Virus record (IMG/VR): IMGVR_UViG_3300048496_000008
Coordinates: 1-39,492 of that record
DNA: 39,492 nt
Reading direction: 5' to 3' (one strand)
Origin: a virus
Taxonomy: Duplodnaviria > Caudoviricetes
A program made the position numbers and the translations under genes. Position 1 is the first letter of the stretch, and the number at the start of each line of letters is the position of its first letter. The notes beneath the pieces are model-generated. The model worked only from the letters and a program-made list of their open reading frames with translations, ran no database searches and was not told where the DNA came from. This document shows, piece by piece, positions 11,699-37,150 of this stretch.

Positions 11699-11916
11699 TC
11701 TGCCCCCATTGCCACCACCGCATCGCCCCAGGCGATCCCGTTCCGGCCTCGGCGATCAAGCCGGGCGACCGGATCAAGCTATCGATCGAGCAAGCCCCGG
11801 CCAGCGTCGTAACCTCGCGGCCCTACCACGGCGATCGGTTCGTTCGGATCGTCGACCACACCGGCGAGACCTGGGACTACTACCTAGGCGCGGATCATAC
11901 CGTCTGGCGGCTATAG
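11695..11916 (+). CDS. Hypothetical protein (73 aa)
   Basis: ATGA overlap; CPHC followed by a small beta-rich region. Confidence 0.55.
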   Translation: MICPHCHHRIAPGDPVPASAIKPGDRIKLSIEQAPASVVTSRPYHGDRFVRIVDHTGETWDYYLGADHTVWRL

Positions 11917-12480
11917 AGGTTTTAGCCCGTTTAGTGGATCGTCTGGATCCACACCGGCCGCACGCTGCCGCGCTTTGTAGAGATTGGATTTCTTCGGGGG
12001 CTTCCGGCCGCGACTGCGCAGCAAGCTCTCGACCATCACCTCCGTGCGGACCGTCCGATCGCGGCTCGCTTGATTCTCTGTGCGCTGCTCGTCGACGTGC
12101 TCATCCAGGCTGGTCGATACGCCCTGCACCGCGCCGTCCAGCCGGCCTATTTCGCTATCTACGAATTCGACCCGGATCGCTGCGGCTTTGGTCTCGGTTT
12201 CCTTTTCGATCACCGCGCGGGTCCGGTCCTCGATCCGCGTTGAGTACCACCCCAGGGCCGCCGCCGCGGCTCCGCCGATCGTCACCGCGATCCATAGCAG
12301 CGCCTTGAGGATCTTTACGCTGCGCTGGAATTGCCAGGCGTCCTCGGCCGATTTAGTCGCGTTGTCATTCGCCTCGCGATACTTCCCCATGATCTCGGCA
12401 ACGCCGGAGTAATCGCCGGTCTCCTCGCGTTCGCGCTTGAGGGCCTCACGTAGTGCTGTGACGATCTCTGTTTGTGTCAT
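11911..12480 (-). CDS. Single-pass membrane protein with coiled coil (possible lysis accessory)
   Basis: TM segment ILKALLWIAVTIGGAAAAALGWY, then coiled coil; ATGA overlap with the fibre gene. Confidence 0.6.
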   Translation of the reverse strand: MTQTEIVTALREALKREREETGDYSGVAEIMGKYREANDNATKSAEDAWQFQRSVKILKALLWIAVTIGGAAAAALGWYSTRIEDRTRAVIEKETETKAAAIRVEFVDSEIGRLDGAVQGVSTSLDEHVDEQRTENQASRDRTVRTEVMVESLLRSRGRKPPKKSNLYKARQRAAGVDPDDPLNGLKPL

Positions 12481-13751
12481 GCTGTGCGATCCGAGGGCAC
12501 AGCGATCACAAATGCTGTGCAACGATACGTCCGCGCCGCCTCCGCCCGAAATTGTACAAATACGTCGGTTCCATCTGTGTTGATCTGCGAGGTAATCGCT
12601 CCACCGCCCGGTAGATTCTCATGCAGCGGGCCGGTCCCGTGCTCCGTCCCATCGGAGTCGACCAGCGTGGAGAGGATCGCGTTATAGCTGCGAGTCGCGT
12701 CGGTGTCGTCGGCTGCGGTGATCAGCGCGAACACGTTCATTGTATTTTTGCTATCCATCGTAAAGCTGCCGATGGTCGCGAACGATGCCCCGGTGATGTT
12801 CGCCTTGAACGTGCGTATCGTTGCGAACTGGCTTTCCTCCTCGGCCGTCCCTTCGTGGGTGCGCATGCGCCAGAACGGATTAGATCCATCGCTGAGACCC
12901 TCATGGCTAAACTGATTTGCGCGTGAAACGACATTGGCACCATTGCCGCCTGAAGCCACATCCTCGATTGTCCAGAATGCAGTGCGGGTCGAGGTGGTCT
13001 CCCACGGGTGCATGCTGAGGATCTTGTCTCCGCCCCCGCTCTCGGTCACTTCCATCAGGAAACCCTTGCTGCTTCCCGTTTCGCGATCGTCATCATCGAT
13101 CTGTGCTATGCGCACCGAATCAGTGATCAGCTCCGGCCAGGCGGGATAGAGCGCCTCGACGCCGGTGATATCCGTGGCATCCGTGATCACCTTGAGCACA
13201 TTGACGAAATCAGCCGTAGGCACAGGCGCACCGGCACCATTGCCCACCTCATTGATCTCGATCGTTTCCGAATCGGTCACAAAGATCGCAACGTACGCAT
13301 CCTTCAGTGCGCCGAACGTATGCGAATCGAACCCCTGCGCGGCGATCTGCGCAGGAGTGATGCCCAGCCGGAACAATCGGCCTAGTCCGCCATTTACCCA
13401 CACTGCACCGCCTTTGATCTCTCCGGTTAGCCCGGCAGTCTGGACGGCCCACAGCGTCGATCCTCCCGTAACGGGTAGCTGCGGATGGAATGCTCCGCCG
13501 GCCGGTCCAGGTGAGTAGAAAAAATCGGACGGGCCAAAACGGTTATGCGCCACAACGGTTTGAAAGTCGCTGGTCTTACTCAAGTCCTGCCCGCTCGCTT
13601 CGACCGCTCTGGCCAGCTCCTCCTGCCATGCGTTGGCGATGTCGTCCGTTACGATCGTTGCGGGGATCGTCGGCGGGCTGCCCTCTGTGAATCCATCCTT
13701 ACCGGGCCCGTGGGTATCGATCTCTCTGGTGGCGTTGTCGATCCGATGCAT
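12477..13751 (-). CDS. Mu-like tail fibre protein
   Basis: N-terminal MHRID...GKDGFTEG...PATIVTDD..NAWQEEL..AVE.SG..L anchor; follows gp48. Confidence 0.85.
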   Translation of the reverse strand: MHRIDNATREIDTHGPGKDGFTEGSPPTIPATIVTDDIANAWQEELARAVEASGQDLSKTSDFQTVVAHNRFGPSDFFYSPGPAGGAFHPQLPVTGGSTLWAVQTAGLTGEIKGGAVWVNGGLGRLFRLGITPAQIAAQGFDSHTFGALKDAYVAIFVTDSETIEINEVGNGAGAPVPTADFVNVLKVITDATDITGVEALYPAWPELITDSVRIAQIDDDDRETGSSKGFLMEVTESGGGDKILSMHPWETTSTRTAFWTIEDVASGGNGANVVSRANQFSHEGLSDGSNPFWRMRTHEGTAEEESQFATIRTFKANITGASFATIGSFTMDSKNTMNVFALITAADDTDATRSYNAILSTLVDSDGTEHGTGPLHENLPGGGAITSQINTDGTDVFVQFRAEAARTYRCTAFVIAVPSDRTA

Positions 13752-13787
13752 TATGTGTCTCCATGCCTCACCGCGTGCGATGGGTGC

Positions 13788-14375
13788 TTACGGTGTGATC
13801 TCCAATCCGAAGGTTGTGTGCGCCTGCTTGGCCTCGTCGATCAAGCAGTTGAGCTGATCATCATCGGCAAGGCTTGGCGGTCGCGTTCCGATTACCGTGA
13901 AATGATAGATCCACGGACCTTGCTGCAGCGGGTCGCCCACCGCGGAAAAGCCGACCCGGAACGGCATCGCATCCTCGCGAATGCTGACCGATGTGTAGCC
14001 GAGCTTTTCGGCGATCTCGATCATCGTCGGGATCGAGCTGTTTTTTTTCTGGGTCAGCTTGGAATGCAGCGCATCACGACGGCCTTGCGTGGTCGCAACG
14101 GGCGTATCGCAGCGACCGGGCAGATCGGCGAAGGCTTCCCATTCCGGCAGCAGCTCGCCGGCCGTGCGTACATCCGCCTCGCGCAACATATCTTCCACAC
14201 GGCACTCGACCCGGGCGAATTCAAACGCCAGCGCGCTGAGCAGCTTAGTTAGGATCGCATCGGGGTCGCGAGTCCAGGCCGGGCCGGTCGGCAGCAGATC
14301 CTGGAGTACGTGCGTATATTTCGTTTCGTCGCACTCGTCGCCCCAGAAGCCGGACCAGTCACTGCCCCAAAACAT
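13788..14375 (-). CDS. Baseplate protein Mu gp48 / YmfQ (DUF2313)
   Basis: LQDLLPTGPAW, EADVRTA.ELLPEWE, F..G.S.VGDPL, L.C.I...KQAHT. Confidence 0.9.
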   Translation of the reverse strand: MFWGSDWSGFWGDECDETKYTHVLQDLLPTGPAWTRDPDAILTKLLSALAFEFARVECRVEDMLREADVRTAGELLPEWEAFADLPGRCDTPVATTQGRRDALHSKLTQKKNSSIPTMIEIAEKLGYTSVSIREDAMPFRVGFSAVGDPLQQGPWIYHFTVIGTRPPSLADDDQLNCLIDEAKQAHTTFGLEITP

Positions 14376-16279
14376 TAGGCGATGTCCTCATCGAATCGCA
14401 GCTCCACCATATCGATCCGCGCGGACCAGCGCATCGCGGTAGCGGCGATCCCTGTTACCTCGATCTTCAGCGAGCCATTTGTGGTGTCAGCAGATACCGC
14501 GATATTCAGAGCCGCGTTTGACTCGAAAAGAAAATCAGACACAAACGCATGGAGCGTGGTGCTGCCCGCCGTCGTGTCCCTGGAGATCACGCCCGTCCCT
14601 TGCGTGGCGGTTTTCTCTACCTGCTGATCATCTTTGCCAACCACGTAGATAGTAAACGCATAGATCCGATCCGGTTCGATGATGATCCGGTTCGATCCGG
14701 GCAGGGTCGTGCCGGACGGCGCGGATCCGTCCAGGGTCAGCTCCGTAGGCGTAGCGTCGCCGGTCGCGCGGCGAAGGGTTAGGCCGCTCTGGCTCTGCAC
14801 GTCGCCGTTATCGCTGAAGCGTCCGTTAGCTTGAGCAAGCCCGCCTATCCTGTTCCCGATCGCGCGCGTACCCCATGCCTGCGCGCTATCGGCTGGTGCA
14901 TCGTTGACCACGCCGAACGCCCAAGCAGCAAGCCCGCCCGCAGTAGCACTAGATCCCTCTGCGTGGGCAGAGGAATTGCTAGCGACACATCCGAACCCGA
15001 ACGCATAAGAGGCGGTACCCGTGGCCTGTACGTTCGTCCCATGCGCCCATGACCCGGTGCCGATGTTTGCTGCGTCCCACTCGGTACCCGAAACGGATCC
15101 CGATCGCCATGCTAGCTTTCCCGGGACCCACATCGCCCGAGTCCCCGCGCCGCTGGTAGGCGTGTCGCCGGTATCGTTATCCCACCACCACGCCTTGCCG
15201 GTGTAACGCGTGGGCGGTGCGTAAGATGTCTGCTCGTTGACGGTCAATCCGGGATCGGTCGGGATCTCCGTGAACGCCGATGCGCTGTTTGTCATGAAAT
15301 CGTATGTAAAGGTTCCGGTGCCAGTGACCCAGGTATTCGCACCGGAGATCGTGATCCCTCCGGTCACCTGGACATTGCCGGTCGCCGGGATGTCGATCGC
15401 CGATCCGGTCGGACCGCCCGAGCAATCGGTATTGACCAGGCTGGCCGCGCCGGCAGATTGCAGGCCGATCGAAAACCCGAATAGCTGACTGCCGAGATCA
15501 ATCAGCGTGGTTCCGTCTGCAGTCTTTAGCGCAGTACCAGGGAACCCGGTCGGGAGGAATTTACAATCCTTGGTATACAGCGTGCCGGTCTGGAGATCGC
15601 AGGCCACCTTATTCGCTGTGGGTGTGCTGGCTGTGATCTCGTCGAGCGTGGCCACTGCACCGCCAGCCTGAGAGATCACGATCGCATCGTCGTCGAGCGA
15701 TTCGATCTTGCACCGTGAGATCTGGCAGCTCTGTGCGTTGCTGCCGGTGATGTCCACGGCGATGCCTGCCGCTGGGGTGATGTCGATCCCCGCCCAGCTT
15801 GCATACGTATCGTCAACATCCGTAGCGGTTACGAGATCGATCACAAGCTTCCCGACCAGCGTGGTCTGCCGATGGTCGCCGCCTAGGTCCGCCTCGGAGA
15901 ATCCGGCCTCGGCCCAGCCCTTGACGATCACGCCAGTTTTCAGCGCTACCGTCGCCTCCGTAAACGTCCCAGGCAGCACCACGACCACGCCACCGCCATC
16001 TGTGCTGGCCTGATTGATCGCAGCCTGGATCGAAGTGAATCGACACTCTGATCCGACCGGGCCCACCGCATACGTCGCGAGACAGCTCGCACCCTTGGCG
16101 ATCTGGGCTTGCGTCGCAAGTATGAAATCGTCGACGAAATCGCCCCAGTGCTCGTTGGCCCGCGTCTGCGACTGCGCGCGCGTGGTCGCAACCCGATCGA
16201 CCTTATCGGTAATCAGCTCTGCGTGCGTGGTGGTGAATGCAGGATCAAACAGATTGACGCTGTTTACTGGGTTCGCCAT
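14375..16279 (-). CDS. Second tail fibre/spike (beta-helix-like region plus YadA-head-like repeats)
   Basis: FTSIQAAINQA...GGVVVVLPGTF beta-helix start; 14-residue S.A.G....A repeats; 634 aa. Confidence 0.7.
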   Translation of the reverse strand: MANPVNSVNLFDPAFTTTHAELITDKVDRVATTRAQSQTRANEHWGDFVDDFILATQAQIAKGASCLATYAVGPVGSECRFTSIQAAINQASTDGGGVVVVLPGTFTEATVALKTGVIVKGWAEAGFSEADLGGDHRQTTLVGKLVIDLVTATDVDDTYASWAGIDITPAAGIAVDITGSNAQSCQISRCKIESLDDDAIVISQAGGAVATLDEITASTPTANKVACDLQTGTLYTKDCKFLPTGFPGTALKTADGTTLIDLGSQLFGFSIGLQSAGAASLVNTDCSGGPTGSAIDIPATGNVQVTGGITISGANTWVTGTGTFTYDFMTNSASAFTEIPTDPGLTVNEQTSYAPPTRYTGKAWWWDNDTGDTPTSGAGTRAMWVPGKLAWRSGSVSGTEWDAANIGTGSWAHGTNVQATGTASYAFGFGCVASNSSAHAEGSSATAGGLAAWAFGVVNDAPADSAQAWGTRAIGNRIGGLAQANGRFSDNGDVQSQSGLTLRRATGDATPTELTLDGSAPSGTTLPGSNRIIIEPDRIYAFTIYVVGKDDQQVEKTATQGTGVISRDTTAGSTTLHAFVSDFLFESNAALNIAVSADTTNGSLKIEVTGIAATAMRWSARIDMVELRFDEDIA

Positions 16280-17382
16280 TAGGGCAGCACTCCATAGACG
16301 GGGGTTCCGAGCACCGGCACCTCGCCGATCGCGTGGGTCACATTGGCAACGGGTGATACGGTTACGTGATCCTCCTCGCCGCTGGCCAGGCTGATCGCCT
16401 CGTTGATCTGGCTGAGTAGCAGGGTGGAGTTATCGCCACCGCGACGCAGTAGGTAATCCTCTAGCTGAGCGGTTACGTTGGCCTTGACCTGATCGAACGT
16501 AAAGCCCGATGCGACCTTGAGATCGATCACCGGATTTAGTGGCACCTCGGCCGGGGCGGCGACGGTCACTGCGGCCGTGACGGGTCGGAACGCATCGATC
16601 ACAGCCTGCACCTCGGCCACCTTGGTAGGCGATGGGATGATCGTAGGTGTCTGATCGTCCAGGACGAACGTTAGCAGTACGGTCCCCGGTCCAAGCTGCA
16701 AGGGGAATTCAAATGCCCGGGTCACACCGGCGACGGTTAGCGCCTCCTGGATATAATCGCCATCCGCTCCGCCGCGCGGCGGATCCTGGACGCGCAGCTC
16801 CACGCGACCGATCAGATCCTCGATCGATTCGATGTCCGTGCCGTTTACTAGCCCGTTGCCGGCCCCATCGTCCTCGACCAGCGCGGTGGCGTCGACGCCA
16901 GCGATCGGGCTGACGATCGTTAGGGCCGTTCCGATCACTGCGTTGCCATCTGCCCCGGGAGTCTCGGCCGTGATCGGCGTGGACACATCGCCGCCACCGC
17001 CAATTACCACGCCAGGGGAATCGACCAGATAGCGGACGCCATCGGCCCGCTGCCATACCGTGTCCGTGGGGACCGGCGTGGTGGGGACGCCGGTGATCGG
17101 GATCGATCCGATCGCTAGACCAGCCTCTTTGCGTCCATCGTCACCTAGCCAGAAATCACCCCAGCGCGTGGCGTTCTCCTCATCGTTCTCGATCGACGGG
17201 ATGATCTGCTTTACTCCGTGCTGGATGTGTCCGTGCAATCCATGCGACGCACCGCCCAGCGCGCGACCCAGCACGCCCTCGACCGTTTTCCGTAGCTTCG
17301 CATCGGCGCCCTCTAGGCGGCTTTCGATGTCGGCCGCGATCCGGCTGATGATCTGCGCTGCGGTGGGTCTGAAAAATGCCAT
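16279..17382 (-). CDS. Baseplate J-like protein (Mu gp47)
   Basis: MAFFRPT, G.DGN, GTDIES...L..R, PPRGGA..DY...AL.V.GVTRA. Confidence 0.93.
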   Translation of the reverse strand: MAFFRPTAAQIISRIAADIESRLEGADAKLRKTVEGVLGRALGGASHGLHGHIQHGVKQIIPSIENDEENATRWGDFWLGDDGRKEAGLAIGSIPITGVPTTPVPTDTVWQRADGVRYLVDSPGVVIGGGGDVSTPITAETPGADGNAVIGTALTIVSPIAGVDATALVEDDGAGNGLVNGTDIESIEDLIGRVELRVQDPPRGGADGDYIQEALTVAGVTRAFEFPLQLGPGTVLLTFVLDDQTPTIIPSPTKVAEVQAVIDAFRPVTAAVTVAAPAEVPLNPVIDLKVASGFTFDQVKANVTAQLEDYLLRRGGDNSTLLLSQINEAISLASGEEDHVTVSPVANVTHAIGEVPVLGTPVYGVLP

Positions 17383-17847
17383 TTAGAGCAGCCTCGCTGT
17401 GGTCGCGTCCCAGGTTCGGATCCATCTTACCGCCGGGGTTTCCGGTCTGGCTATCTCCACGCGGATGCAGAGCGGCCGCAGCGGATGATCCTCTAAAAAG
17501 AATGGAGTAGCCAGGACCGTCGCGGCTACCCCGTCGTCCAGCAGCCAGCGCAAGGCATCCTCGGCGAAACCCTTGGCAATCTCGATCGCGCTATCCTGGG
17601 ACTTCGCTTTGCCAAGCAGCCACAGCAGCGAGCCGATCAGATCCTCTGGAACGTCCGGGTACGTGTCGCCCCACCATCCGCGGCGCTCGGTCGGATCGGC
17701 TACCTCGCTGGCCGGCGCTCGGCGATCGGAGAACAGCGAGATCGTAACGGCTGACTCTAGACCATCGTCGGTTAGCAGCGTGCCGGAATCCGCGAACGCC
17801 AGATCCGCGAAGCCCTTTTCATTGTCGAATACCAGGGCGATCGTCAT
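17383..17847 (-). CDS. Baseplate protein Mu gp46
   Basis: LESAVTISLFSDRRA, RRGWWGD, IGSLLWLL, AEDALRWLLDDGVA. Confidence 0.93.
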   Translation of the reverse strand: MTIALVFDNEKGFADLAFADSGTLLTDDGLESAVTISLFSDRRAPASEVADPTERRGWWGDTYPDVPEDLIGSLLWLLGKAKSQDSAIEIAKGFAEDALRWLLDDGVAATVLATPFFLEDHPLRPLCIRVEIARPETPAVRWIRTWDATTARLL

Positions 17848-18449
17848 TAGGTGGCCTTGACCTTGGTGGCTGCGACGGGGGCGAGGGCGCCGATCAATGG
17901 GACTGGCACGCCAGTGGTACCAGGACCGGCTCCGTGAGAATGGGTATGAACGTCATAATCTGCCTGGATCTTGTCTAATCGCGCCTTGACATCCGCAGCG
18001 AGAGCCACGAACTGCGCCGCAGCATCGGCCCCCAAATGCACCAGCCCGGCAAGCTCTGGCACGGCCGCGATCGATCCGTCCTCTTTGGCGTGGACCCGGT
18101 TTCCCTTGTCCGTGTAGATCGCTGTCTCGCCATTTGCGCCGACCTTGAACCGCGAGCGCCGATCGCTGACCACGACCGCGACGGGGTGGTCCGTGTTGCC
18201 TCCCACTGCCAGCACGATGGCCTCAGAGCCGGCAGGCGGCCGCGCTGAGAGCCCGTACGGCTGGAAGTGCTCGACCGCATCGTCTGCCTCATCGGCTAGC
18301 AGAGTGACCTGGACGGTTTGGAGCTTGCTCGAATCGTTGACGATCTCGACGACGGCCCGCTTGACCATCCCTTGCACTCGCCCTCGCAACGGACTGATAA
18401 CCTTTCTGACGATCCGCTCTATGAGTCGTGCGGCTACCACTGGATCCAA
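17847..18449 (-). CDS. Baseplate spike/assembly protein V (Mu gp45)
   Basis: VEHFQPYGLSARPPAGSEA, GETAIY, C-terminal HTH metal-binding motif. Confidence 0.9.
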   Translation of the reverse strand: MDPVVAARLIERIVRKVISPLRGRVQGMVKRAVVEIVNDSSKLQTVQVTLLADEADDAVEHFQPYGLSARPPAGSEAIVLAVGGNTDHPVAVVVSDRRSRFKVGANGETAIYTDKGNRVHAKEDGSIAAVPELAGLVHLGADAAAQFVALAADVKARLDKIQADYDVHTHSHGAGPGTTGVPVPLIGALAPVAATKVKAT

Positions 18450-19510
18450 CTCTTCCCCTGGGTCCGCGCGTTGCGTTTCCCTGGTGGCACCAGCACATCG
18501 AACGCCTCGGGGCGGCCGGTCTGGATCGTGGTCACGCTGCGATTACTGGCCTTCTCATAGGTCACCGCAGTGATAAGCAGATCATCGTCGACGCGCAGGA
18601 ATCGGTCGCGCACCCGCACGATCTCGTTCGGTTTCCAGAGGCCATCGGCGTGGTGGTAGCCCTGGACGCGGTGAGACAACCGCCGCGACTGGCCGGCTCG
18701 GGTGTTGCGTTCCCACTCGGCCCGCCGGATCAGATCGTTGGCATTGCCCTGGTCCTCTGCGATTACCACTAGCGGCCGATTGCGATCGATCCCGTCGTCC
18801 GTCACGAAACCCTTGGGGCACGACGCGACGGCCCCGAAGAAATCATCCGTGCCCACGAGCTGGGACTTGAACGTGTAGATCTGAAACCGGCTTTTCAGAT
18901 CGCCGCTACGGGTGCCGCCTAGGACGTTTTGGCCCAGCTCTAGTGCGGTCTCGATCCGCTTGCTGCCGGCCCGGGTAAACCTGACCTGCGCGCCGTTATC
19001 CGTCACGATCAGCATGCCGCGCATCCGGGCCAGCCGGCTCAGCGCCTCGAATACCGCCTCGCCATCCTGGATCGAAAACCTCGGGAACTTGACCAGCGCT
19101 TGCTCTGCCGCGGTCGGATCGATCACTACGTCCACGTCGAACGGGCTGCACAGATCGTTGGCGATCGTCTCTAGCAGCGAGTCTCGCCATTTGCCGGTTT
19201 CATGGATCGCGCTACTGTCCACCAGATCGCCCGTATTGCCTCGGCCACTGATCGCGATATTGTGCGTGTTGGCATCGTAGGAGATCTCTACCTGATCGAT
19301 ATGCCCGACCATCACCTCCTCGCCATCGATCGCTACTATGCACTCGTCGCCCTCGTCGAATTCCAGCGGCTGATTCAACTCGCCGCCTCGGTCCACATAG
19401 TCAAAGCGGAACTCCCCTGCGAGCTGCTCGATCCCGAGACGCACCACAATTGTCGTCCAGTCCTCGCGGGCCTGACCGTCGACGCTCAGCCGGATCCGGT
19501 TCTCAGGCAT
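18434..19510 (-). CDS. Baseplate hub protein (Mu gpP/gp44)
   Basis: GIEQLAG.F, GR..TGDLVDSSA, RAEWE...RAG, LWKPN. Confidence 0.93.
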   Translation of the reverse strand: MPENRIRLSVDGQAREDWTTIVVRLGIEQLAGEFRFDYVDRGGELNQPLEFDEGDECIVAIDGEEVMVGHIDQVEISYDANTHNIAISGRGNTGDLVDSSAIHETGKWRDSLLETIANDLCSPFDVDVVIDPTAAEQALVKFPRFSIQDGEAVFEALSRLARMRGMLIVTDNGAQVRFTRAGSKRIETALELGQNVLGGTRSGDLKSRFQIYTFKSQLVGTDDFFGAVASCPKGFVTDDGIDRNRPLVVIAEDQGNANDLIRRAEWERNTRAGQSRRLSHRVQGYHHADGLWKPNEIVRVRDRFLRVDDDLLITAVTYEKASNRSVTTIQTGRPEAFDVLVPPGKRNARTQGKSWIQW

Positions 19511-22792: not shown

Positions 22793-22795
22793 GGA

Positions 22796-22984
22796 TCACC
22801 CGCCTCTCCCAAGCAGTTTCATTCGCACCGCCTGCCGCAGCCAATGATCCATCCGCTCGGGTGTCAGTCGCCACAGCTCCGACTCCGAGAACTGGAACAC
22901 CGCGGCCAGTGCTCCTAGGCAGTCTCTCCAATTTGACGGGAAGCAAGCGCGAGCAGCATTTCGGAGAGTCCAACCCCTTTTCCC
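22796..22984 (-). CDS. -1 frameshift extension of tail assembly chaperone (gpE'/gpGT-like)
   Basis: Slippery G GGA AAA at 22984-22978 enters the frame with LAAVFQFSESELWRLTPERMDHW. Confidence 0.75.
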   Translation of the reverse strand, partial: GKRGWTLRNAARACFPSNWRDCLGALAAVFQFSESELWRLTPERMDHWLRQAVRMKLLGRGG

Positions 22985-23853: not shown

Positions 23854-23862
23854 AATAGCCTC

Positions 23863-25563: not shown

Positions 25564-25571
25564 GCTGCCCC

Positions 25572-26563: not shown

Positions 26564-26982
26564 ATGTTCCTCTGGGTTGCCCTGGTAAAGAGGCGCTCCG
26601 GCCCGAACAGAGTTACCCCGCCGCCTACGCTCGTGGGCGGATCGTCCAGACCTAGCGAAGCCTTGCCGGCCGCGATCGCCTTGAGCAATTCGATGCAGTC
26701 CTCGTATCGCCGCCGCCGCTCGTCGGTCAGGATGTCGTGGGTGATGTGCAGCTTATAGACCGCAATATCCACGCAGCAGGACTTGAGCACGTCCGGCACC
26801 GGGGAGATCGGCAGGTCATACCGCGCGGAGATCCACGCGTTGATCTCGCCGGTCGCATCGTCCAGGGACGCCTGTACCGTGTCGGTGTCCTCGACCTGAT
26901 CCCGATCTCGATCGGCCGCTATGTTCAGGATCTCCGGTCCATAGCGGTCGATGATGTCGTCTTTGGTGGCGTAGGCGGCCAT
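26560..26982 (-). CDS. Head-tail adaptor (Mu gp36, DUF1320)
   Basis: YAT..D...RYG, DAT.EI...I.ARY.LP, C.DIAVY.L, RYE.....L..IA.GK.SLG. Confidence 0.93.
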   Translation of the reverse strand: MAAYATKDDIIDRYGPEILNIAADRDRDQVEDTDTVQASLDDATGEINAWISARYDLPISPVPDVLKSCCVDIAVYKLHITHDILTDERRRRYEDCIELLKAIAAGKASLGLDDPPTSVGGGVTLFGPERLFTRATQRNI

Positions 26983-29417: not shown

Positions 29418-30104
29418 TCAGCGCAAGCGGCGACCTCTGTAGTCGTAAAGGGCCCCCGCTTGCCATTCTGTGGGTATCGGGCGCCCTCCTCCCGCTGCCA
29501 GCTCGCCATCGACCACGAGCCCGGCCCGCAGCGCCACCTCGCGCCACAGCCGCTCACCGGGATCGCCCACCCTGCCGCTGCTGTAGTTCCGGTGCGCCTG
29601 GATGTGGGTCACGTTCGCGCCGGCCTCCTCCGCCTTGAGTAGCATAAGCTTGACCGCCGCCCGGGCCGTGGCGATTAGAAAATCATCGATCGCGTGGTGC
29701 TTGGGTTTGCGCTTCGACTCCAGCCCCGGGAACGAACCTTCCACCGCGACACCCAACGATCGCGCGTTGCTGCTGTTCCCGTGGTAGGTGTAGCGATCGA
29801 TCTCATTGTTCCAGAGCACATCGCCGTTGAGCAGCGCCACGCAGTGATAGGGCACCTTGTAGAAACGCCGATGCAGCGCGAGCCGTTCGCCGTACTTGTC
29901 GCGGTTGCGTTTGGTCGTGCCGAACTTTACGGCGGTCTGGTGCAGTACGATCGTGGTAACGCTCGGAGCGTACCGGCCCGAATCTTTGCCCGGGCCGTTG
30001 CGCACGTCTCGGGTGTTGTCGAAGTAGTCCGGCCAGGCATCCTCGCGCGGATGGACGAACCGATCCGATCGGGCCCACTCCAGGATCGGCCGCCACCAGA
30101 GCAT
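29418..30104 (-). CDS. N-acetylmuramoyl-L-alanine amidase (Amidase_2), putative endolysin
   Basis: IVLHQTA, VPYH, TYHGN..N..SLGVAVEG, AHR.....GDPG; TGATG overlap with gpF. Confidence 0.85.
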   Translation of the reverse strand: MLWWRPILEWARSDRFVHPREDAWPDYFDNTRDVRNGPGKDSGRYAPSVTTIVLHQTAVKFGTTKRNRDKYGERLALHRRFYKVPYHCVALLNGDVLWNNEIDRYTYHGNSSNARSLGVAVEGSFPGLESKRKPKHHAIDDFLIATARAAVKLMLLKAEEAGANVTHIQAHRNYSSGRVGDPGERLWREVALRAGLVVDGELAAGGGRPIPTEWQAGALYDYRGRRLR

Positions 30105-30865
30105 CAGATCTTTTCGATCTCCCCGCTCAGCGCGTTGAGTCTGTGAGTCCCCGGATTGAAGGCCCATTGCGGATCTAGCCCCTCGTCGACCTTGACCTTT
30201 CGCCCTGTCCTGGGATTGATCATCTCCACCTCGCGACGCGGCGGCCTGGGTGTCGGCCCTCCTCGGCGCTCGACCTCGCGATTCCCTAGCTGCCGTACAT
30301 GGCAGTGACAATTCCAGCCGTTGGGCGGCATGTGATCCAGCCACCAAGGATCATCGGCCGGCAGCGTGGTCCCGTCCCACTGGATATGTAGATCGCGATG
30401 CCGCTCTGCCGGTCCTAGCTGATAGACCAGAAAGGGTAGCGTTTCCTTCGTGGTCTGCACACGTTGCCACTGACCGACCGCGCGCGCCGATCGCATATTG
30501 TGGAAGTAGATCGTTTTGAGCCGATGCGGCGATCCGAAATCGACCTTTCGCTTTCGTCCCGTTTTCGGATCCTCGATCTCTCGCTCGCCCCACCAGCCCA
30601 TGCGCTCAAGCCTCGGCTTTAGTTCGTCCTTGAATCGCTCGAATGTGGTGCCCTCGGCGAGCGCCCGATCTACCTCGTCGCGCAATGCCTCAAGCAAATC
30701 ACGTTCCATGGCACCAGCCGCAGTGAATGCCCGGTTATGCTCGTCTTGCCACACATCGCGAAAATCAAATGAAGGCTCTAGCCCCTTGCTGCGGAAGAAA
30801 TCGATCGCACGCTCCGGCGGATCGCCCGGCTTGCCAGGCCGGCGGAGATATAGATCCACGCTCAC
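30104..30865 (-). CDS. Head morphogenesis protein (Mu gpF), short form
   Basis: AIDFFRSKG, H.RAFT.A, GWWG, RLKTIY..N...A...G.W, R..H..WDG, PPNGWNC.C. Confidence 0.93.
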   Translation of the reverse strand: MSVDLYLRRPGKPGDPPERAIDFFRSKGLEPSFDFRDVWQDEHNRAFTAAGAMERDLLEALRDEVDRALAEGTTFERFKDELKPRLERMGWWGEREIEDPKTGRKRKVDFGSPHRLKTIYFHNMRSARAVGQWQRVQTTKETLPFLVYQLGPAERHRDLHIQWDGTTLPADDPWWLDHMPPNGWNCHCHVRQLGNREVERRGGPTPRPPRREVEMINPRTGRKVKVDEGLDPQWAFNPGTHRLNALSGEIEKI

Positions 30866-32415
30866 CGGATCGAATCCGTAGCGTCGCCTACTCCGCGCGC
30901 CTCGAAATTCATCGTGGCAATTCTCTGGACGATCGGATCGCTCGCCACCGCCTTGAGCACTCCGGGCAGCTTCCGCTTGAATTCGGAATAGGTGCTGACC
31001 GTCTCGGCGAGCCTGGCGATGGGCTCCACCAAGGGGTTCAATACCTCGCGCCATTCGTCGTCGAACTGCTCGCCGATCTCGCCGATGATGTCTGATTCGC
31101 CCCGGGTCTCGCCGATTGCTGCGAGTGCGGCCGTCTCGGTCCCAGGGAGGCCACCGCCGCCCCCTTGCGGTTCCAACACCTCGGCATCATCGGCCGGCTC
31201 CTGTAGCTTGAACTTGTCGCGGATCTCCGCAGCCTCGACCCGTAGCCCGCGATCAATGAATGGGGTAAGCGCTTTGGAAAGGGACTCCAGATCCTCGGCC
31301 CGTTCGATCGCCAGCTTGAACGTCGGGTACACCTCTTGCGGTCCGAAGTTCAGATCGACCCACGGCCGCACCAGATCGCGGTTGATCGTATCGCTGAGAT
31401 CGGCCGCGTCGGACTCCATGATGTCCCCGCGCACGCTGTCATGCACGATGGCCTGCGCCCTGCTGCTACCATCGTCCGTGGTCATGGTCTGGCCGAGCAC
31501 TAGCTTGCTGGTCTGCTTGTCGAGCCAGTTCTCTAGGACCACGAACAGCCCGCCGCCGTCCCCGCTGGTGGAGCTTGAGTCTACGAATTCCAGATCCATC
31601 GACTTAGGGATCGTCGCGGCCGCATCGGTGCCGATGTTTGCCACGGCTGTTTTGAGCGTGTCGATGTCAGAGGGCTCGGACTGATTCGGATCGTACTTGC
31701 CCACCCGCAACGGCAGGCCGAACACCTCGGCAAAGCTCATCCAGTCATTGAGCGCATAGCCCTTGTACAGATGCAGCGCCGCCTCGACCCGTGCCAGACC
31801 GCCACGGATCGGCAGGCCCGACTTGAGGTGCGGACGATGCACAATGAACTTGCACGGCTCCAGCGGCACGCCGAATGCCGGCGCATCGTTGCTGATCAGT
31901 CCGATCGTCTGACCGGCATCCTGATCGAATCGAAAGAACCTAGGATCGCGCCACTTGTACGCAATCGGATCCCACGCCTCGGCATCGCGCCGCCAGATGA
32001 TCTCGACCACGCTGTAGCCCTTGGCTAACGCGTCGAGCAGATTGCCGAGCGCCACGCGGAAGATCGGAGCGTCGATCATTCGCTGCGTGGCTTCCTGGAT
32101 CTCGACGCTCTTGGTATCGTCCGGGTCGCCCGCTGCGACCATTGTAGGCAGGGACTGCACCGCCATCTTGCGAGTAGAGATCACGCTGCGATAGTGCGGA
32201 TCCCTCTCCTCCATCTCCTCGGCCAGCGCGAGGTAGTCCCGCGGATCGCTACCCTCGTCGACCTGCCGCAGAAGCGATCCCAGCCGTTCCGGTGTCAGGC
32301 CACGCGCGATCGACTGGGTAAAGACGTTACGGATCGAGCTGATCGAGGCGCGGCCCAGCTCCTCCTGCAGTCGGTCCGTGTTGATCGGGCGGCCCTGTGC
32401 GTCAAGTATCGGCAT
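30862..32415 (-). CDS. Portal protein (Mu gp29, DUF935)
   Basis: GLTP.RL..LL, EEMEERD.H, LDA..KGYSV.EI.W, F.EVFGLP.RVGKY, SKLVLGQT.TT. Confidence 0.95.
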   Translation of the reverse strand: MPILDAQGRPINTDRLQEELGRASISSIRNVFTQSIARGLTPERLGSLLRQVDEGSDPRDYLALAEEMEERDPHYRSVISTRKMAVQSLPTMVAAGDPDDTKSVEIQEATQRMIDAPIFRVALGNLLDALAKGYSVVEIIWRRDAEAWDPIAYKWRDPRFFRFDQDAGQTIGLISNDAPAFGVPLEPCKFIVHRPHLKSGLPIRGGLARVEAALHLYKGYALNDWMSFAEVFGLPLRVGKYDPNQSEPSDIDTLKTAVANIGTDAAATIPKSMDLEFVDSSSTSGDGGGLFVVLENWLDKQTSKLVLGQTMTTDDGSSRAQAIVHDSVRGDIMESDAADLSDTINRDLVRPWVDLNFGPQEVYPTFKLAIERAEDLESLSKALTPFIDRGLRVEAAEIRDKFKLQEPADDAEVLEPQGGGGGLPGTETAALAAIGETRGESDIIGEIGEQFDDEWREVLNPLVEPIARLAETVSTYSEFKRKLPGVLKAVASDPIVQRIATMNFEARGVGDATDSIR

Positions 32416-32707: not shown

Positions 32708-32711
32708 GGTG

Positions 32712-32767
32712 CAGTCCTCACAGCGCCCCCCCATGTAGCGGCCCGGTCAGTCCTCACAGCGCCCCCC
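32712..32767. repeat. 20-bp perfect direct repeat at the terL 3' end
   Basis: cagtcctcacagcgcccccc at 32712-32731 and 32748-32767. Confidence 0.85.
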
Positions 32768-34205
32768 GCTTCCACATCCCGCGCGGCGCTACCTTGTCAT
32801 ACCGGATCGTCTGCACCTCGGTCCGGCTCGCCGCGTAGGCCAGCATAAAGGCTACCGCCGAATCGCCGTGCCGGGGCTTGCGGTCCGCCTTGCTCGTGGT
32901 GCGCGCTTTAGTCAACTTAGGGATCCCGTTGATTACCTTGACCTGGCGCAAGTCGCTGAGCACGTCTGCGTCTCGGGGGATCGAGATCCGATGGTCCTCG
33001 AATGCAGACTTTAGCAGCGGGAACATCTCGCCATACTTGCGCTCGCTGAGGTGGACGCCCTCGATTTTATCGCCGTATTTTAGCGCGGCCGCCTCGGCCA
33101 GGGCCTGACCGTTGCCACCCGCGTCGATCTTGCCCGCAATGAATCCGGGCAGATGATCGATCAGGTAGAACAGCACTTGCTCTTGCTGCCGGAAAGGGAC
33201 GTTCCGCAGCTCGATCAGAAACGGGCACCGCCGCGATAGGTTCTGCTCCAGGACAAGCGGGGCCAGGGCGCTGATATCGGACGTCCGCCCAAAGTCCACG
33301 CCCACTGCCGAGCCCTTGGCTTTCCCCTCAAGCTGCCGCAGCGGAAGCGATAGGTGCGTGCGGCACCAGCCCTCGACGTGATCGCGGCGATCCTCCTCGG
33401 TACGGTGGGCGAAGTCGTCGGACAGCCCCAGCCGGAAGACCGGCGCATCGGCCATGCAGTCCTCGATCAGTCGACGGCTAAAGTAGGTGCCACCGCTCCC
33501 GCTCGGGATACAGAACAGCTCCTCATCGGCCGCGTCGCCGTAGTCCTCTAGGATCTCCTCGCGCCATCCGATCTCCGCTTCCCTGCTCCACTCGAATCCT
33601 TCCACCTCGCAGATCTTGCGGTAGAGCCCATCGCCGATCGCATCGTCCAGCGTGATCCGGTGGTGACTGTAGTCCCGCTTCCCCGCGTGGATGTCGTCGA
33701 CCAGCGTGGCGAAGTCCGAGTCGGTCCCATCGTGCGTGCTGATCACCATGACCCGGCCGCCCCACATCGTGAATGCGAGCGCCGACTTTAGGATCGCCGC
33801 TGGGTCGTCGTGAAAGGCGTACTCATCCGCGACGCAGACGCCCCGCTTACCCCGCAGCGATCTGGGCATGGAGGGCAGCGCAATGATCCGGTTGCCGCTA
33901 TTGAACCGGACTGTATGCACCAGCATCTGCCGGCCCTCGTCGTCGATCATCTCCTGCCGGATCGCTGGGACCTGCGAGAGCCTCTCGACCCACCACCGCA
34001 CGTCGACGATAAACTCCGCGGCCTGATCTTTGTTATAGCCCGTGTAGTACCAATCCGTCCCGCTCTGGCTCGCAGCGTCGATCACCGCATCGCCAGCGGT
34101 CGCCCACGTGATCCCGATCTGCCGAGACTTTTCGCAGACTTTGACCCGCGCCAGATCCTCGACCCAGCGCTGCTGATAGGGCAGAAGTAGCCCCTCCTCA
34201 GTCAT
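32754..34205 (-). CDS. terL: Terminase large subunit (Mu gp28-like)
   Basis: LLPYQQRW, EKSRQIGITW, DEYAFH, ISTH.G, GVDFGR..D, HGDSAVA. Confidence 0.95.
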   Translation of the reverse strand: MTEEGLLLPYQQRWVEDLARVKVCEKSRQIGITWATAGDAVIDAASQSGTDWYYTGYNKDQAAEFIVDVRWWVERLSQVPAIRQEMIDDEGRQMLVHTVRFNSGNRIIALPSMPRSLRGKRGVCVADEYAFHDDPAAILKSALAFTMWGGRVMVISTHDGTDSDFATLVDDIHAGKRDYSHHRITLDDAIGDGLYRKICEVEGFEWSREAEIGWREEILEDYGDAADEELFCIPSGSGGTYFSRRLIEDCMADAPVFRLGLSDDFAHRTEEDRRDHVEGWCRTHLSLPLRQLEGKAKGSAVGVDFGRTSDISALAPLVLEQNLSRRCPFLIELRNVPFRQQEQVLFYLIDHLPGFIAGKIDAGGNGQALAEAAALKYGDKIEGVHLSERKYGEMFPLLKSAFEDHRISIPRDADVLSDLRQVKVINGIPKLTKARTTSKADRKPRHGDSAVAFMLAYAASRTEVQTIRYDKVAPRGMWKRGAL

Positions 34206-34419
34206 CGTCCTTAGCGACCGGCACCGGCGGTAGCTGCATCAGCGTCTGCACCATCATCTGCACCTCGGCCACCGTGATTTTAGGTACGCACATCTCGGTC
34301 AAGAACTGGATCAGCGCGCGGACGGTCCCGTCCTGAATCACGCGTCCGGCCGGTTGCTGTGCGCGTTGGAGCTGCCGGATCTTATCGTTGGCATCGGTTA
34401 CTGCTTGATCGTCTGGCAT
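34198..34419 (-). CDS. Hypothetical protein (73 aa)
   Basis: ATG 34419 after GAGGAG; overlaps the terL start. Confidence 0.6.
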   Translation of the reverse strand: MPDDQAVTDANDKIRQLQRAQQPAGRVIQDGTVRALIQFLTEMCVPKITVAEVQMMVQTLMQLPPVPVAKDDD

Positions 34420-34709
34420 GGGGTCTCCTCGATCATCTCGCGGCGGGATTCTCGGCGAGCGTGTCGGCGATAATGTGGATAGCTCGCCGACGCACGCAAG
34501 TGCTGGCGTCGCTCCGGGCGTAATGGGGACCATGCCCATGGTTCTGGCTCGCCCAGATACGGGGGCTCGAATGGCGGTCCCTCATGGAGTTTCGGAAGCA
34601 GGAAGATCGGCGGGGGCTGTTGGAAATTGTTTCCGATCGTGATCGTTGGGCTAGCGCAGTTGCAGGCAGAGCCGCACCAACCACAGATGCTTTGGCTGTC
34701 GAAAATCAC
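34398..34709 (-). CDS. Hypothetical Pro/Cys-rich protein
   Basis: GTGA-coupled ORF filling the gap; CGWC..CNC; weak support. Confidence 0.4.
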   Translation of the reverse strand: MIFDSQSICGWCGSACNCASPTITIGNNFQQPPPIFLLPKLHEGPPFEPPYLGEPEPWAWSPLRPERRQHLRASASYPHYRRHARRESRREMIEETPCQTIKQ

Positions 34710-35329
34710 AGTTTGAACGCCTCGAAATCAATCAGCACCTCGACCGGCTGCGCCCCAGTGCTGTGATACGTCGCCCGCAAGATCAGGCCCGCCACGACCG
34801 CCGCAGCCTTACCGCTCCGCAGCACTCGCCGCTCGCCTGGGACCACGTACATGGTCTCGACGTACTTGGCTAGCGTCACCTCGGGCGGTCCGGGGTTGAC
34901 GATCTCGAATTCGATGTAGTCGCCTAGCTTGGCGTTTGCGTCGCAGTAGAACGACCCGCCGAACAGATTGGCCGCGTACGGAATCGTCCAGTCCATCTGG
35001 GAATCCGTGTCGGCCGCCGCGGTGTGGATGTGACCTTTCCACTGCGACTGGCCATCGTACTCGGCGAACGTGGTGGCCACGATCTGCTGGCCCTTGTCAT
35101 TGATCGCCGGGCTTTTCGGCACGCCCTGGTGCGCCGCGATGATGGCATTCAGGTCAGCCTGTACGACCCCGCCGCGCATTACGACGTCGACCGTATCGCC
35201 ATCGAGCGCGAGGTGCTTCAGCGCCACGGGAATTTCAGATGCATGGATCTCCGCCTTGAGGGTCGATAGATCGACCTTCGCATTCGGAAAGTCCGCGGCG
35301 ACGCTGTATGTATACGTGGTCTCAGCCAT
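34706..35329 (-). CDS. Putative virion accessory protein
   Basis: 207 aa, beta-rich C-terminus; AQ-type structural composition; coupled to neighbours. Confidence 0.55.
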   Translation of the reverse strand: MAETTYTYSVAADFPNAKVDLSTLKAEIHASEIPVALKHLALDGDTVDVVMRGGVVQADLNAIIAAHQGVPKSPAINDKGQQIVATTFAEYDGQSQWKGHIHTAAADTDSQMDWTIPYAANLFGGSFYCDANAKLGDYIEFEIVNPGPPEVTLAKYVETMYVVPGERRVLRSGKAAAVVAGLILRATYHSTGAQPVEVLIDFEAFKL

Positions 35330-35779
35330 CTAGCACCCCACCCTTTGCAGAATCATCGATCGGCCCCGCGACGTCGCGGTGTCGCCCGTCACGCGCCAGC
35401 GCAGATCGACCACATCGCCATCACTGATCACCCGCGCCAAAACGGCCACGGTCATGGTGCTGGATGTGGTCGGAAATGCTCCGTGCTGGTGCTGCATGCC
35501 CGCGCGCTCTGAGTCTGTGATCTGTACGCCATTGACGTAGGCGCTAACCGTCGTTTCCTCGGTGTTCCCGTTCGATAGCTCGACGGTACCCACTAGCAGA
35601 TACTCCCCGGCCTTGGGCGCGACGATCGACATCCCCGGCACCAGGACATCGGTTAGGCTCGTGGTCGCAGCGGTTACGACGGACTTGGCTTCCAGCGGCG
35701 GATCGAGCAGCAGCGATCCGGTCTTAGTCAGCCGGACCGGCGCGGTGCGGCGTAGCAGCTTGACGGTGGTATGCGTCAC
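35330..35779 (-). CDS. Putative C1q/BclA-like beta-sandwich protein
   Basis: VPGMSI..P.AG.YL..G.V, YVNG, GDVVDLRW pattern. Confidence 0.5.
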   Translation of the reverse strand: MTHTTVKLLRRTAPVRLTKTGSLLLDPPLEAKSVVTAATTSLTDVLVPGMSIVAPKAGEYLLVGTVELSNGNTEETTVSAYVNGVQITDSERAGMQHQHGAFPTTSSTMTVAVLARVISDGDVVDLRWRVTGDTATSRGRSMILQRVGC

Positions 35780-36156
35780 AGCGCAAACCTCGGAGAGATC
35801 ACGATCGTCCCTTTCTGGATCGTGCGCTGTGCCGATAGCACCGCGTTAGTCGCAACGATGTTATAGCGGTGCGTTCCGACCACGGACACGCTCTCGGCGA
35901 TGTCCAGCGTATAGGCCCCGGCCGCATCGAACCCGGACACGCTCGCAGCGAAGGGTGTCCCCTCGATCGTGATCGCGCCGACCCAGCCGCCGTCCGCTGT
36001 AAAGTCGGCCGGGTTGATCGGCGTGCCATCGTCCTCGAAGTCCTCGGCGATCTGGAACTGGCCTTTGAAGGAATCATTAGCCAGCAGCGGATCGTTCGGA
36101 TCGTGGCCGATGTGGACCGGCTCGCCGGTGCCGAGGGATGCGATGTCGATGGCCAT
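35776..36156 (-). CDS. Putative Ig-like adaptor (BppU-N-like)
   Basis: DGTPI...DFT...W, G.YTL.I, G..RYNI, G.I.ISP pattern. Confidence 0.5.
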   Translation of the reverse strand: MAIDIASLGTGEPVHIGHDPNDPLLANDSFKGQFQIAEDFEDDGTPINPADFTADGGWVGAITIEGTPFAASVSGFDAAGAYTLDIAESVSVVGTHRYNIVATNAVLSAQRTIQKGTIVISPRFAL

Positions 36157-36159
36157 GGG

Positions 36160-36330
36160 TTATCCGCTTTGCCGCTGTCCGAACGCCAACGCTAGCGGCC
36201 AATCCGGATCGCCGCGTCTATGAATCTCACCGCAGTCCCTACATTGAACGTCGGAGCCGCCCCGCATATTGACCCACGCCCGCACAGGATGGCGGCATTG
36301 CTGATCAGTCCACTTGGTAGATTCCTCCAT
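36160..36330 (-). CDS. Small Zn-ribbon-like protein (56 aa)
   Basis: CRH...CRDC; TGATG overlap. Confidence 0.45.
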   Translation of the reverse strand: MEESTKWTDQQCRHPVRAWVNMRGGSDVQCRDCGEIHRRGDPDWPLALAFGQRQSG

Positions 36331-36704
36331 CACGCAGCCCTCCGCTTCCACCGCCCAAAGTCCTCATCGGGCGCCTGATCCGGGATCTCCTGCGCGGCCC
36401 GTTTCATTGCGGCCTTGAGCACCCGACCCTTGAGCCGCTGTGCCTGCCTACCCTGCAGCCATCGGATCGCAGCCTTCCATCGACGGATCCGTCCGCGCAG
36501 CCACGAGACGCGCCACAAGCTGTGCCGTTTGCGATGCAGCACTCGACCGAGACGCCTGGCGAAGACCCGCACGCGCTGGCGCATGTAGATGATCAGGCCC
36601 TTGATCCCGGCGTCTGCGATCGTGCGGAGTAGCCAGCGGCCGATCCGAAGTAGGACGCGGCGAAGGCCGGGCCACATTGCGGTGAGAATTGAGGCGGTAG
36701 TCAT
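36330..36704 (-). CDS. Highly cationic amphipathic protein
   Basis: 124 aa with 26 Arg, 7 Lys and 7 Trp; ATGA-coupled to the putative terS. Confidence 0.6.
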   Translation of the reverse strand: MTTASILTAMWPGLRRVLLRIGRWLLRTIADAGIKGLIIYMRQRVRVFARRLGRVLHRKRHSLWRVSWLRGRIRRWKAAIRWLQGRQAQRLKGRVLKAAMKRAAQEIPDQAPDEDFGRWKRRAA

Positions 36705-37150
36705 TGTGTGCCTGCTTTCTTAGCCTCGATCTGGATCACCCGCGCCGGCTTGCCCCCCAGTCCATGCGCGCGAATCATCCGCACCTCTGCGTCCGTAAAC
36801 CCCCGCCGCACCGCGGGCACCTTAGCCGAAACCTGGACGCGATGCACCAGCCCGCCGTAGCTCTGTAGTAGCAGCTTGGCCGCGCCGAGTCTGACCCGGG
36901 CCGCATCGACATCGCCGATCGGCTTTCGCAGCAGTCGCCACACCTCGGCCCGTACCTCGTCGGCCCGCAGCGCTTGCAGCTCCTGGCGGTCGCTCTGATT
37001 GCTGATCGCATGCTGCACTACCTGGGACTGGATGGCCTCGACGATCTGCTCGCGATCCAGGCCGGCATGGGCCGCAGCGCTGTGACCGTCTGCTGTCTCG
37101 ACGTAGATCGCTGCGAAGCGCTCCAGGGCGAGGGTATCGATGGCACTCAC
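36701..37150 (-). CDS. Putative terminase small subunit
   Basis: GTG 37150; ERFAAIYVET.DGHSAAAHAG resembles the TerS HTH; RLGAAKLL; C-terminal GFT.AEV.MIR...LG. Confidence 0.6.
   Translation of the reverse strand: MSAIDTLALERFAAIYVETADGHSAAAHAGLDREQIVEAIQSQVVQHAISNQSDRQELQALRADEVRAEVWRLLRKPIGDVDAARVRLGAAKLLLQSYGGLVHRVQVSAKVPAVRRGFTDAEVRMIRAHGLGGKPARVIQIEAKKAGTQ

Follow-up and report, generated by a model that had tools for sequence, protein, structure and literature searches.

Can a phage that keeps the head and tail of Mu live without transposition? The question is raised by IMG/VR record IMGVR_UViG_3300048496_000008, a virus sequence of 39,492 nt (record class linear, CheckV completeness 100) that we analysed over its whole length and refer to here as the window. 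We found that the window carries a near-complete Mu virion, comprising a gp28 packaging motor, a gpT capsid and the Mu contractile tail, in a genome that closes into a circular map and in which sequence searches detect no transposase or integrase. The most informative feature, unlisted in the preliminary description of this DNA, is a gene for a predicted small terminase (TerS) of the SPP1/SF6 type that replaces Mu gp27.

To identify the genes, 78 of the 300 open reading frames (ORFs) of at least 50 aa were scanned against PHROGs and Pfam, and 43 ORFs of the window against NCBIfam. The structural genes named in the preliminary description were all recovered. They occupy 13788-34205 of the minus strand and follow the Mu order, the sole exception being G, which comes after gp36. 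Mu-type matches were obtained for gp48, gp47/baseplate J, gp46, gp45, gp44, N, the tape measure, tube, sheath, gp38, gp37, G, gp36, gpT (E 3e-83), I (E 2e-48), F and the portal, with the TAC/gp41 match, at 24.3 bits, falling slightly below the 25-bit cut-off. The large terminase (TerL) matched 120 cultured-phage records, and the best 60 of these 120 were led by gp28 of the BcepMu group (49% identity) and included Mu gp28 (42%). The late genes are arranged as follows.

32754..34205, minus strand: Mu gp28-type TerL, 49% identical to the BcepMu group and 42% to Mu, with the PHROG pattern found in Mu and BcepMu gp28
30862..32415, minus strand: Mu gp29-type portal (PF06074, 1e-97)
30104..31054 as listed, minus strand: Mu F (gp30) minor head protein (PF04233, phrog_220), whose true start is probably near 30870 rather than 31054
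29418..30104, minus strand: Amidase_2 endolysin between F and I (PF01510, 1e-6), 61% identical to the protein at the same position in L007/L008
26995..29380, minus strand: Mu I protease/scaffold, a small virion protein and the Mu gpT major capsid protein (PF10123, phrog_1731, PF10124)
25339..26982, minus strand: neck genes gp36, G (Phage_tail_S), gp37 and gp38 (PF07030, PF05069, PF08873, PF10948)
20759..25335, minus strand: sheath (L), tube (M), chaperone (gp41) and tape measure (PHROGs and Pfam)
19503..20759, minus strand: gpN/gp43, DNA_circ_N (PF07157, 1e-25)
13788..19510, minus strand: baseplate genes gp44, gp45, gp46 and gp47, a 634-aa insert and gp48 (PHROGs and Pfam)
11911..13751, minus strand: tail fibre (phrog_2617, 1e-13) and a membrane-anchored coiled-coil ORF with a hydrophobic segment

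The preliminary description had already read this head and tail set from the letters, from gp28 to gp48, and the family searches bear it out. It had also remarked that gpN is kept. This calls for no particular explanation, since gp43/N is described in the available text of PMC11915804 as the structural tail-tube initiator of the Mu baseplate, and the idea of gpN as a sign of retained Mu-type circularisation was rejected as unnecessary. The 634-aa gene (14375-16279), between gp47 and gp48, has a weak glycosidase-like N-terminal match in NCBIfam and Gly/Ala-rich repeats; it is possibly a second receptor-binding or depolymerase protein. The coiled-coil ORF is a possible lysis gene, its spanin and holin matches being below significance.

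We next searched the genome in six frames, at E<=10, with families for tyrosine integrase (PF00589), Mu/B3 transposase (phrog_310), MuB (phrog_296), resolvase (PF00239), rve (PF00665) and ParA (PF13614). None gave a match, while their controls did (for phrog_310, Mu at 1e-202 and BcepMu at 1e-141). The PF02914 (DDE_2) search was uninformative, as its own controls matched nowhere, and it is not counted among the negatives. Queries with 14 Mu and BcepMu proteins in tblastn (A, B, Ner, Gam, GemA, Mor, C, gp27, Gin and the BcepMu counterparts) returned nothing at E<1e-4, and GemA, Mor/C, Gam and Ner likewise had no Pfam or PHROG match among the 78 ORFs. ParA was absent in all six frames, with other partition types covered by the Pfam scan alone. 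A set of 66 ORFs tiles 98.9% of the window, the biggest gaps being 188 and 109 bp, and a recombinase of an unfamiliar family among the unassigned ORFs appears unlikely. On these searches the phage falls outside the transposable phages.

The ends of the window gave evidence on whether a gene could be hidden beyond them. The first and last ORFs are the two halves of a single helicase gene, which is intact as one 610-aa ORF in the relative G001/L001.

2..664, minus strand: 5' half of the split gene, which encodes a helicase of the primase-associated kind; identity to the N-terminal region of the 610-aa G001/L001 ORF is 40%
38326..39492, minus strand: 3' half of the same gene, a P-loop ATPase, 68% identical to G001 and without a primase domain

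Among 120 homologs, 119 align to both halves, and the number of residues missing between them is 21 in 92, 22 in 24 and another value in 3. Twenty-one missing codons, together with the reading frames, predict a junction gap of 62 nt. A contig of 1,531 nt (depth 15.9) from run X1 bridges the junction: its letters 421-1531 lie on 38382-39492 and its letters 1-358 on 1-358, which leaves 62 nt between the two placements, in agreement with the homologs. The two placements were treated as one record on the grounds of equal length, depth and strand. The genome is therefore closed, with a circular map of 39,554 bp of which only 62 nt are absent from the window; no terminal repeat or end overlap was found within the window. 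Since the missing 62 nt sit inside one gene, no transposase or integrase can be hidden there. The preliminary description had held that the window was nearly the whole genome, that it lacked a DDE transposase, MuB, Ner, Gam, Mor/C, invertase, integrase and ParA, and that such a gene in the missing junction would overturn its view; the absences and the near-completeness stand, and the junction has no room for one.

Some facts tell against so simple a reading of the map. Strain variants occur in runs X2-X4 as small pieces, and no listed X2-X4 piece bridges the junction; run X1, the source of the sole bridging contig, may itself be the source sample of the record; and a phage with cos ends or fixed terminal repeats, or a circle inside the cell, would give a circular map too. 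It is a different matter for packaging from integrated copies, as circular assembly is not expected for phages with host ends, according to the available text of PMC5000459. A depth slope in X1 (~18 over late genes, 10-16 over early genes) was dropped as a pac signal, the depth being flat per contig.

Mu-type phages pair TerL with gp27, and here the pairing appears to differ. The gp27 family phrog_426 was detected in 48 of 52 Mu-head records from outside the present lineage (G049 and 51 with a transposase) and in 0 of the 2 lineage records, the window (G000) and G001. Its place is probably taken by the first of the following ORFs.

36701..37150, minus strand: probable divergent TerS of the Terminase_2 (SPP1/SF6/Sf6) type, by profile, Atlas and fold
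34198..36704, minus strand: unassigned gene block between TerS and TerL, without an informative family match; five genes have G001 homologs, at 40-68%

The G001 homolog of this ORF matches the TerS family phrog_641 at 2e-5, and Atlas lists a Terminase_2 cluster at 0.93. A two-row profile built from the window and G001 proteins was searched against 1.84 billion proteins and recruited 11; PF03592 matches 5 of these, with 4 above the cut-off. The resulting 11-row profile matched the SF6 TerS structure 3zqp at 2.5e-15; its matches to repeat proteins were rejected as sums of short matches with no passing stretch. In a structural model (pLDDT 78), the N-terminal domain aligns to the DNA-binding domain of SF6 G1P over 50 of 56 residues (Z 6.7, root-mean-square deviation 1.9). 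A word-based homolog search retrieved only the protein itself, and a single-sequence model reached a pLDDT of only 40. Other results speak against the assignment: the window protein alone has no direct match to any TerS family, the 11-row profile is partly circular in that it includes Terminase_2 members, a Z of 6.7 is middling, and the top Foldseek match of the model, Sf6 TerS, is non-significant (E 0.82). Taken together, the profile and model evidence makes it very probable that ORF 36701-37150 encodes an SPP1/SF6-type TerS replacing Mu gp27. The distance from TerS to TerL is ~2.5 kb, filled by the unassigned genes of 34198-36704, which possibly encode virion decoration proteins.

The remaining difference lies in the early arm, whose features other than the split helicase gene are given below.

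38217..38325, no strand: origin-like intergenic element, with inverted 8-mers at 38230-38237 and 38305-38312 flanking an AT-rich core
37788..38216, minus strand: nuclease of the VRR-NUC or Holliday-junction-resolvase-like type (phrog_824, 7e-28; phrog_5702, 1e-6)
37147..37521, minus strand: Sigma70 region-4 helix-turn-helix (HTH) protein (PF04545, 4.5e-11)
9284..11916, plus strand: ribbon-helix-helix (RHH) regulator, NUMOD4-HNH endonuclease, SF2 helicase and two small ORFs (PHROGs and Pfam)
5571..7740, minus strand: YqaJ/RecE exonuclease (phrog_434, 6e-52) and Gp3-like protein (PF18897, 7e-23)
2983..5073, minus strand: XRE HTH regulator, N6/N4 DNA methylase and SLT-domain protein (PHROGs and Pfam)

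Relatives of the helicase usually have a primase of the Prim-Pol, AEP or DnaG type fused in front. In the window and the six closest homologs the helicase is 570-610 aa long and has no primase domain, and a reading of the split gene as a primase was rejected, the primase domain of the longer homologs being absent. Atlas assigned it to a primase/helicase cluster (0.98) and to DUF5906 (0.92). An alignment of 43 homologs has invariant GK, DN, NN and RR columns, which would fit the Walker A, Walker B, motif C and arginine finger of an SF3 helicase. No D5/P4 Pfam match was obtained. Inverted-hexamer arrays after the conserved helicase domain were significant at 30 of 42 family loci compared to 1 of 42 in-gene controls, the 42 being those of 68 loci that aligned far enough, and not independent of each other; G001 has a related inverted array after its helicase gene. 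Across loci L272-L334, the hexamer just after the helicase domain differs at nearly every locus. These arrays are possibly a family-wide replication origin with diverging specificity. This picture is weakened by several results: the helicase has no significant match to PDB sequences; its Walker A reads GSGKG, compared to GSGKT in G001, a family consensus of GSGKS and K-S/T in homologs; taken by itself, the array in the window falls short of significance (p = 0.085); and the count of 30 of 42 was obtained after re-anchoring to the domain end, a first test anchored on the stop codon having given 8 of 56.

The neighbouring early genes offer candidate partners. The YqaJ exonuclease and the Gp3-like protein are a probable recombination pair, and with the SF2 helicase and VRR-NUC nuclease would make a plausible concatemer-making set. 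The Gp3-like protein found nothing in the PDB sequence search or in tblastn against cultured phages. The Sigma70 region-4 protein is a candidate late regulator that may replace Mor/C. Neither a primase nor a polymerase is encoded by the phage.

Is the window a single odd contig or a member of a lineage? G001 carries, on one contig, gp48/tail fibre, SF2 helicase, methylase, YqaJ, helicase, VRR-NUC, TerS, TerL (63%) and portal (66%), and shares with the window the order helicase-VRR-TerS-TerL-portal at 36-68% identity; it has no phrog_310, PF00589 or PF00239 match. Six TerL homologs score 633-688 bits (58-64%), with the next one at 537 bits, and these six group with the window in both TerL trees described below (support 1.0 in FastTree, 92% for a subset in IQ-TREE). 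Equal lengths of the longest contigs are an indirect sign that capsid P0127, TerL P0128 and TerS P0248 lie on one 39,264-bp contig, helicase P0004 and TerL P0133 on one of 42,652 bp, P0001 and P0129 on one of 31,115 bp, and P0003 and TerS P0249 on one of 28,134 bp. The window belongs to a small sediment lineage. Each of the seven runs listed is a sediment metagenome, and the share is small in three. Host hints are weak, the next TerL homologs being in Ca. Binataceae bins and the helicase homologs mostly in Planctomycetota bins, with some in Myxococcales. Metagenome contigs yielded no close relative, the best TerL there being 53% identical. Within the lineage, L007 (3190-6443) and L008 have the portal followed by the amidase with no F (gp30) match, and their capsid is only 41% identical to that of the window, compared to 80-88% for the sheath, which suggests loss of F and capsid exchange. 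The G001 portal has 425 aa, compared to 517 aa in the window.

We then surveyed records at least 90% complete, drawn from TerL- and portal-anchored viral loci among the matches listed (at least 80 each). The TerL survey took 45 loci on contigs of ~20 kb or longer, and the portal survey 45 loci plus 2 helicase-anchored controls. Among the matches listed, phrog_310 was present in 15 of 16 near-complete TerL-anchored records and in 17 of 19 portal-anchored ones (17 of 18 without control G074), so that 32 of 34 near-complete records with a related TerL or portal have the transposase. The two exceptions look apparent only: in G049, Mor and gp27 lie close to the start of the contig, and this is probably a transposable phage with its end cut off, and G015 has a TerL fragment only, without Mu portal or capsid. 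Eight cultured phages were picked as possible exceptions from portal and capsid matches; 6 have a transposase, and Suso and MMP17 have none. The claim that this head module normally belongs to transposable phages is thus borne out, and the absences, the closed map and the syntenic G001 uphold that of a non-transposing lineage with a Mu virion.

The direction of change was addressed with portal and TerL trees, a check that the preliminary description had proposed. The portal tree, from a quick LG+C20 search on 36 rows, puts the lineage together with L170 and 17 transposase-bearing portals in a 99% clade that leaves out Mu and BcepMu; Suso is nested at another point among the transposable phages. 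Monophyly of the transposase-bearing portals was rejected by the approximately unbiased (AU) test (p = 0.026), in an alignment that drops nine rows, namely Suso, L170 and, for run time, seven transposase-bearing rows. A first AU test (p 5e-76) was discounted, as Suso alone could drive its result. The lineage is also nested in a FastTree of 98 TerL rows, while in an IQ-TREE of 37 TerL rows long-branch outgroups attach on the lineage's own branch; this disagreement on the root between the two TerL trees counts against nesting. Derivation of the lineage by module swap is favoured but not proven. It is unlikely that the lineage is, in place of a recent hybrid, a non-transposing survivor from the sister group of the Mu gp28 terminases, an idea backed by the IQ-TREE with its long-branch outgroups and opposed by the FastTree and the portal tree; if true, an origin-replicating, pac-packaging phage type would have lent its virion, later joined to a DDE transposon, to Mu-type phages. 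The nearest portal outside the lineage is that of L170 (1-1353; 55%), on a contig of only 8 kb whose TerL is phrog_979, as in Suso, a whole-TerL swap on a Mu-type head near the lineage.

From these data we consider it probable that the window is a non-transposing phage whose DNA replicates autonomously in circular form, with an origin next to the helicase gene, and is packaged by the headful from concatemers, with an SPP1/SF6-type TerS in the role of gp27. Injected linear DNA, terminally redundant, would be made circular by the YqaJ exonuclease and its Gp3-like partner. The helicase would bind the inverted-repeat element at 38217-38325 and recruit the primase and polymerase of the host, because the phage encodes neither. 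Rolling-circle or recombination-dependent replication would yield concatemers, with the VRR-NUC nuclease resolving branches; the new TerS would mark the pac site and the Mu-derived motor of TerL and portal would fill the heads. Mu itself is a pac/headful packager that works on integrated copies, so only the substrate and the recognition subunit would need to change. The life cycle would probably be lytic, a point against which the XRE and RHH regulators and the RDF-like gene can be set, as these fit a temperate state too. Such a phage likely arose when the late genes of a transposable phage, from TerL to tail fibre, joined the early genes and TerS of a non-transposing one. Of the helicase/recombination-driven replication and concatemer packaging put forward in the preliminary description, the gene types were confirmed; the concatemers are plausible from the circular map and the TerS family.

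Other arrangements of the same genes have to be weighed. The non-transposing genome could be kept as an unintegrated circular prophage, a temperate phage-plasmid replicated by helicase and origin, which would account for the circular map, the origin-like element, the DNA methylase and the XRE HTH and RHH regulators around the divergent junction near 9300. We regard this as quite unlikely: ParA is absent, as are a resolvase or tyrosine recombinase for dimer resolution, a sheath scan of GTDB contigs found no lineage member or close relative, and a Mu portal or capsid occurs at 0 of 63 helicase-family loci, within up to 10 kb. A non-transposing phage could also package with fixed direct terminal repeats or cos ends in place of pac/headful. 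Contigs cannot show ends, and such genomes likewise assemble as circles in the available text of PMC5000459. The TerS, in contrast, is predicted to belong to the family of the pac phages SPP1, SF6 and Sf6, no doubled-depth block is visible in X1 (a weak point), and Suso, with its Mu-family portal, is pac/headful by PhageTerm (PMC9022531); fixed ends are thus distinctly improbable.

Continued integration, by an unrecognised recombinase or by a host or helper integrase with the Gp3-like protein as recombination directionality factor (RDF) and the circle as an excised intermediate, would draw on the name of PF18897, which is RDF-like, and on several ORFs of 150-200 aa without family assignment. 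Against it stand the six-frame negatives for DDE, tyrosine and serine families and the 98.9% ORF tiling. In addition, the spot after YqaJ is occupied in G001 by an unrelated gene of 151 aa, so that the Gp3-like gene can be exchanged and acts like a partner of the exonuclease, and we judge integration very improbable. That the assembly joins a Mu-like late region to an unrelated early region is a concern for any metagenomic sequence. Here it is extremely improbable, given the same helicase-VRR-TerS-TerL-portal order at 36-68% on one contig of G001, an 18,520-nt X1 contig that covers 19889-38408, and strain variants in three further runs.

Additional features of the window were recorded. The largest intergenic gap, 665-852, lies upstream of the helicase gene and holds exact 12-nt direct repeats (729-740 and 769-780) 40 nt apart, with no counterpart at the same place in G001. 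The SLT transglycosylase-domain gene (4234-5073) has a hydrophobic leader and lies in the early region, apart from the amidase endolysin; G001 has a leader-bearing ORF at a similar position that the window SLT protein does not match. Observed compared to expected counts were 2 and 17.6 for TTAA, 0 and 13.1 for CTCGAG, 0 and 10.5 for GAGCTC, and 692 and 585 for GATC; these biases may reflect host restriction systems and could aid host assignment.

The clade of the large terminase is routinely used to call packaging mode, with the Mu clade read as 'host ends' in the available text of PMC5000459. The present lineage, non-transposing and with a circular map that closes, retains a gp28-type TerL and is a counter-example to this rule and to Mu-head markers for transposable phages; a Mu-type packaging gene would then not always mark a transposable phage. 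The apparent pairing of a Mu motor with an SPP1-type TerS is an experiment of nature, in which one may ask if TerS by itself decides the start and the substrate of packaging. With Suso and L170, the window suggests that Mu-type heads left the transposing lifestyle more than once. This significance is tempered by the known cultured Mu-family heads without transposase and by the ordinariness of phage mosaicism.

Compared to known systems, the window resembles the transposable phages (Mu, BcepMu, POA1180; proposed 'Saltoviridae') in its gp28-type TerL (36-49%), gp29, F, I, gpT, gp36-38 and G, and in its entire Mu tail and baseplate, near-Mu order and similar genome size. It differs from them in lacking A, B, Ner, Gam, GemA, Mor/C, gp27 and invertase, and in having a circular map, its own helicase, YqaJ, VRR-NUC and a predicted SPP1-type TerS. 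TnpA and TnpB are the only proteins common to all transposable genera compared in the available text of PMC8705779. The linear map with fixed ends and variable host DNA that is typical of transposable phages was not found, the contig joining its ends into a circle. The helicase region is like the helicase-origin replicons of P4 and phage-inducible chromosomal islands in having, after a P-loop helicase of the primase-associated kind, short inverted repeats on both sides of an AT-rich core (38217-38325); unlike them, the window has a helicase without primase domain and a full, helper-independent virion. The predicted TerS shares with those of SPP1, SF6 and Sf6 (Pfam Terminase_2) an N-terminal HTH and a helical oligomerisation region, by profile and fold matches; unlike these, it is highly divergent, stands ~2.5 kb from TerL and is partnered with a Mu gp28-type TerL.

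Cultured phages provide two precedents. The Stenotrophomonas phages Suso and StM171 (proposed 'Nordvirus') share the Mu-family portal, F and gp36 and the lack of transposase and integrase, the latter reported for StM171 in the available text of PMC10747581. Unlike the window, Suso has TerL phrog_979, capsid phrog_1005, a non-contractile tail and DnaD/RecA-type early genes. Meiothermus phage MMP17, described in the available text of PMC7448439, is likewise a circular-map myovirus (33 kb) with Mu-family portal, F, I and gp36 and neither transposase nor integrase, and it encodes its own primase-polymerase and helicase. It differs in its TerL, which best matches phrog_7579 and is undetected by the window TerL, in its capsid, phrog_544 and not gpT, and in its portal, 25% identical. 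The literature searched, with most subscription papers (including those on Saltoviridae) outside its scope, contained no description of a gp28-TerL phage without transposase. The general combination of a Mu-family head without transposase is therefore already known from Suso/StM171 and MMP17; the window stands apart from these in keeping gpT, the gp28 motor and all of the Mu tail, with differences confined to TerS and the early arm.

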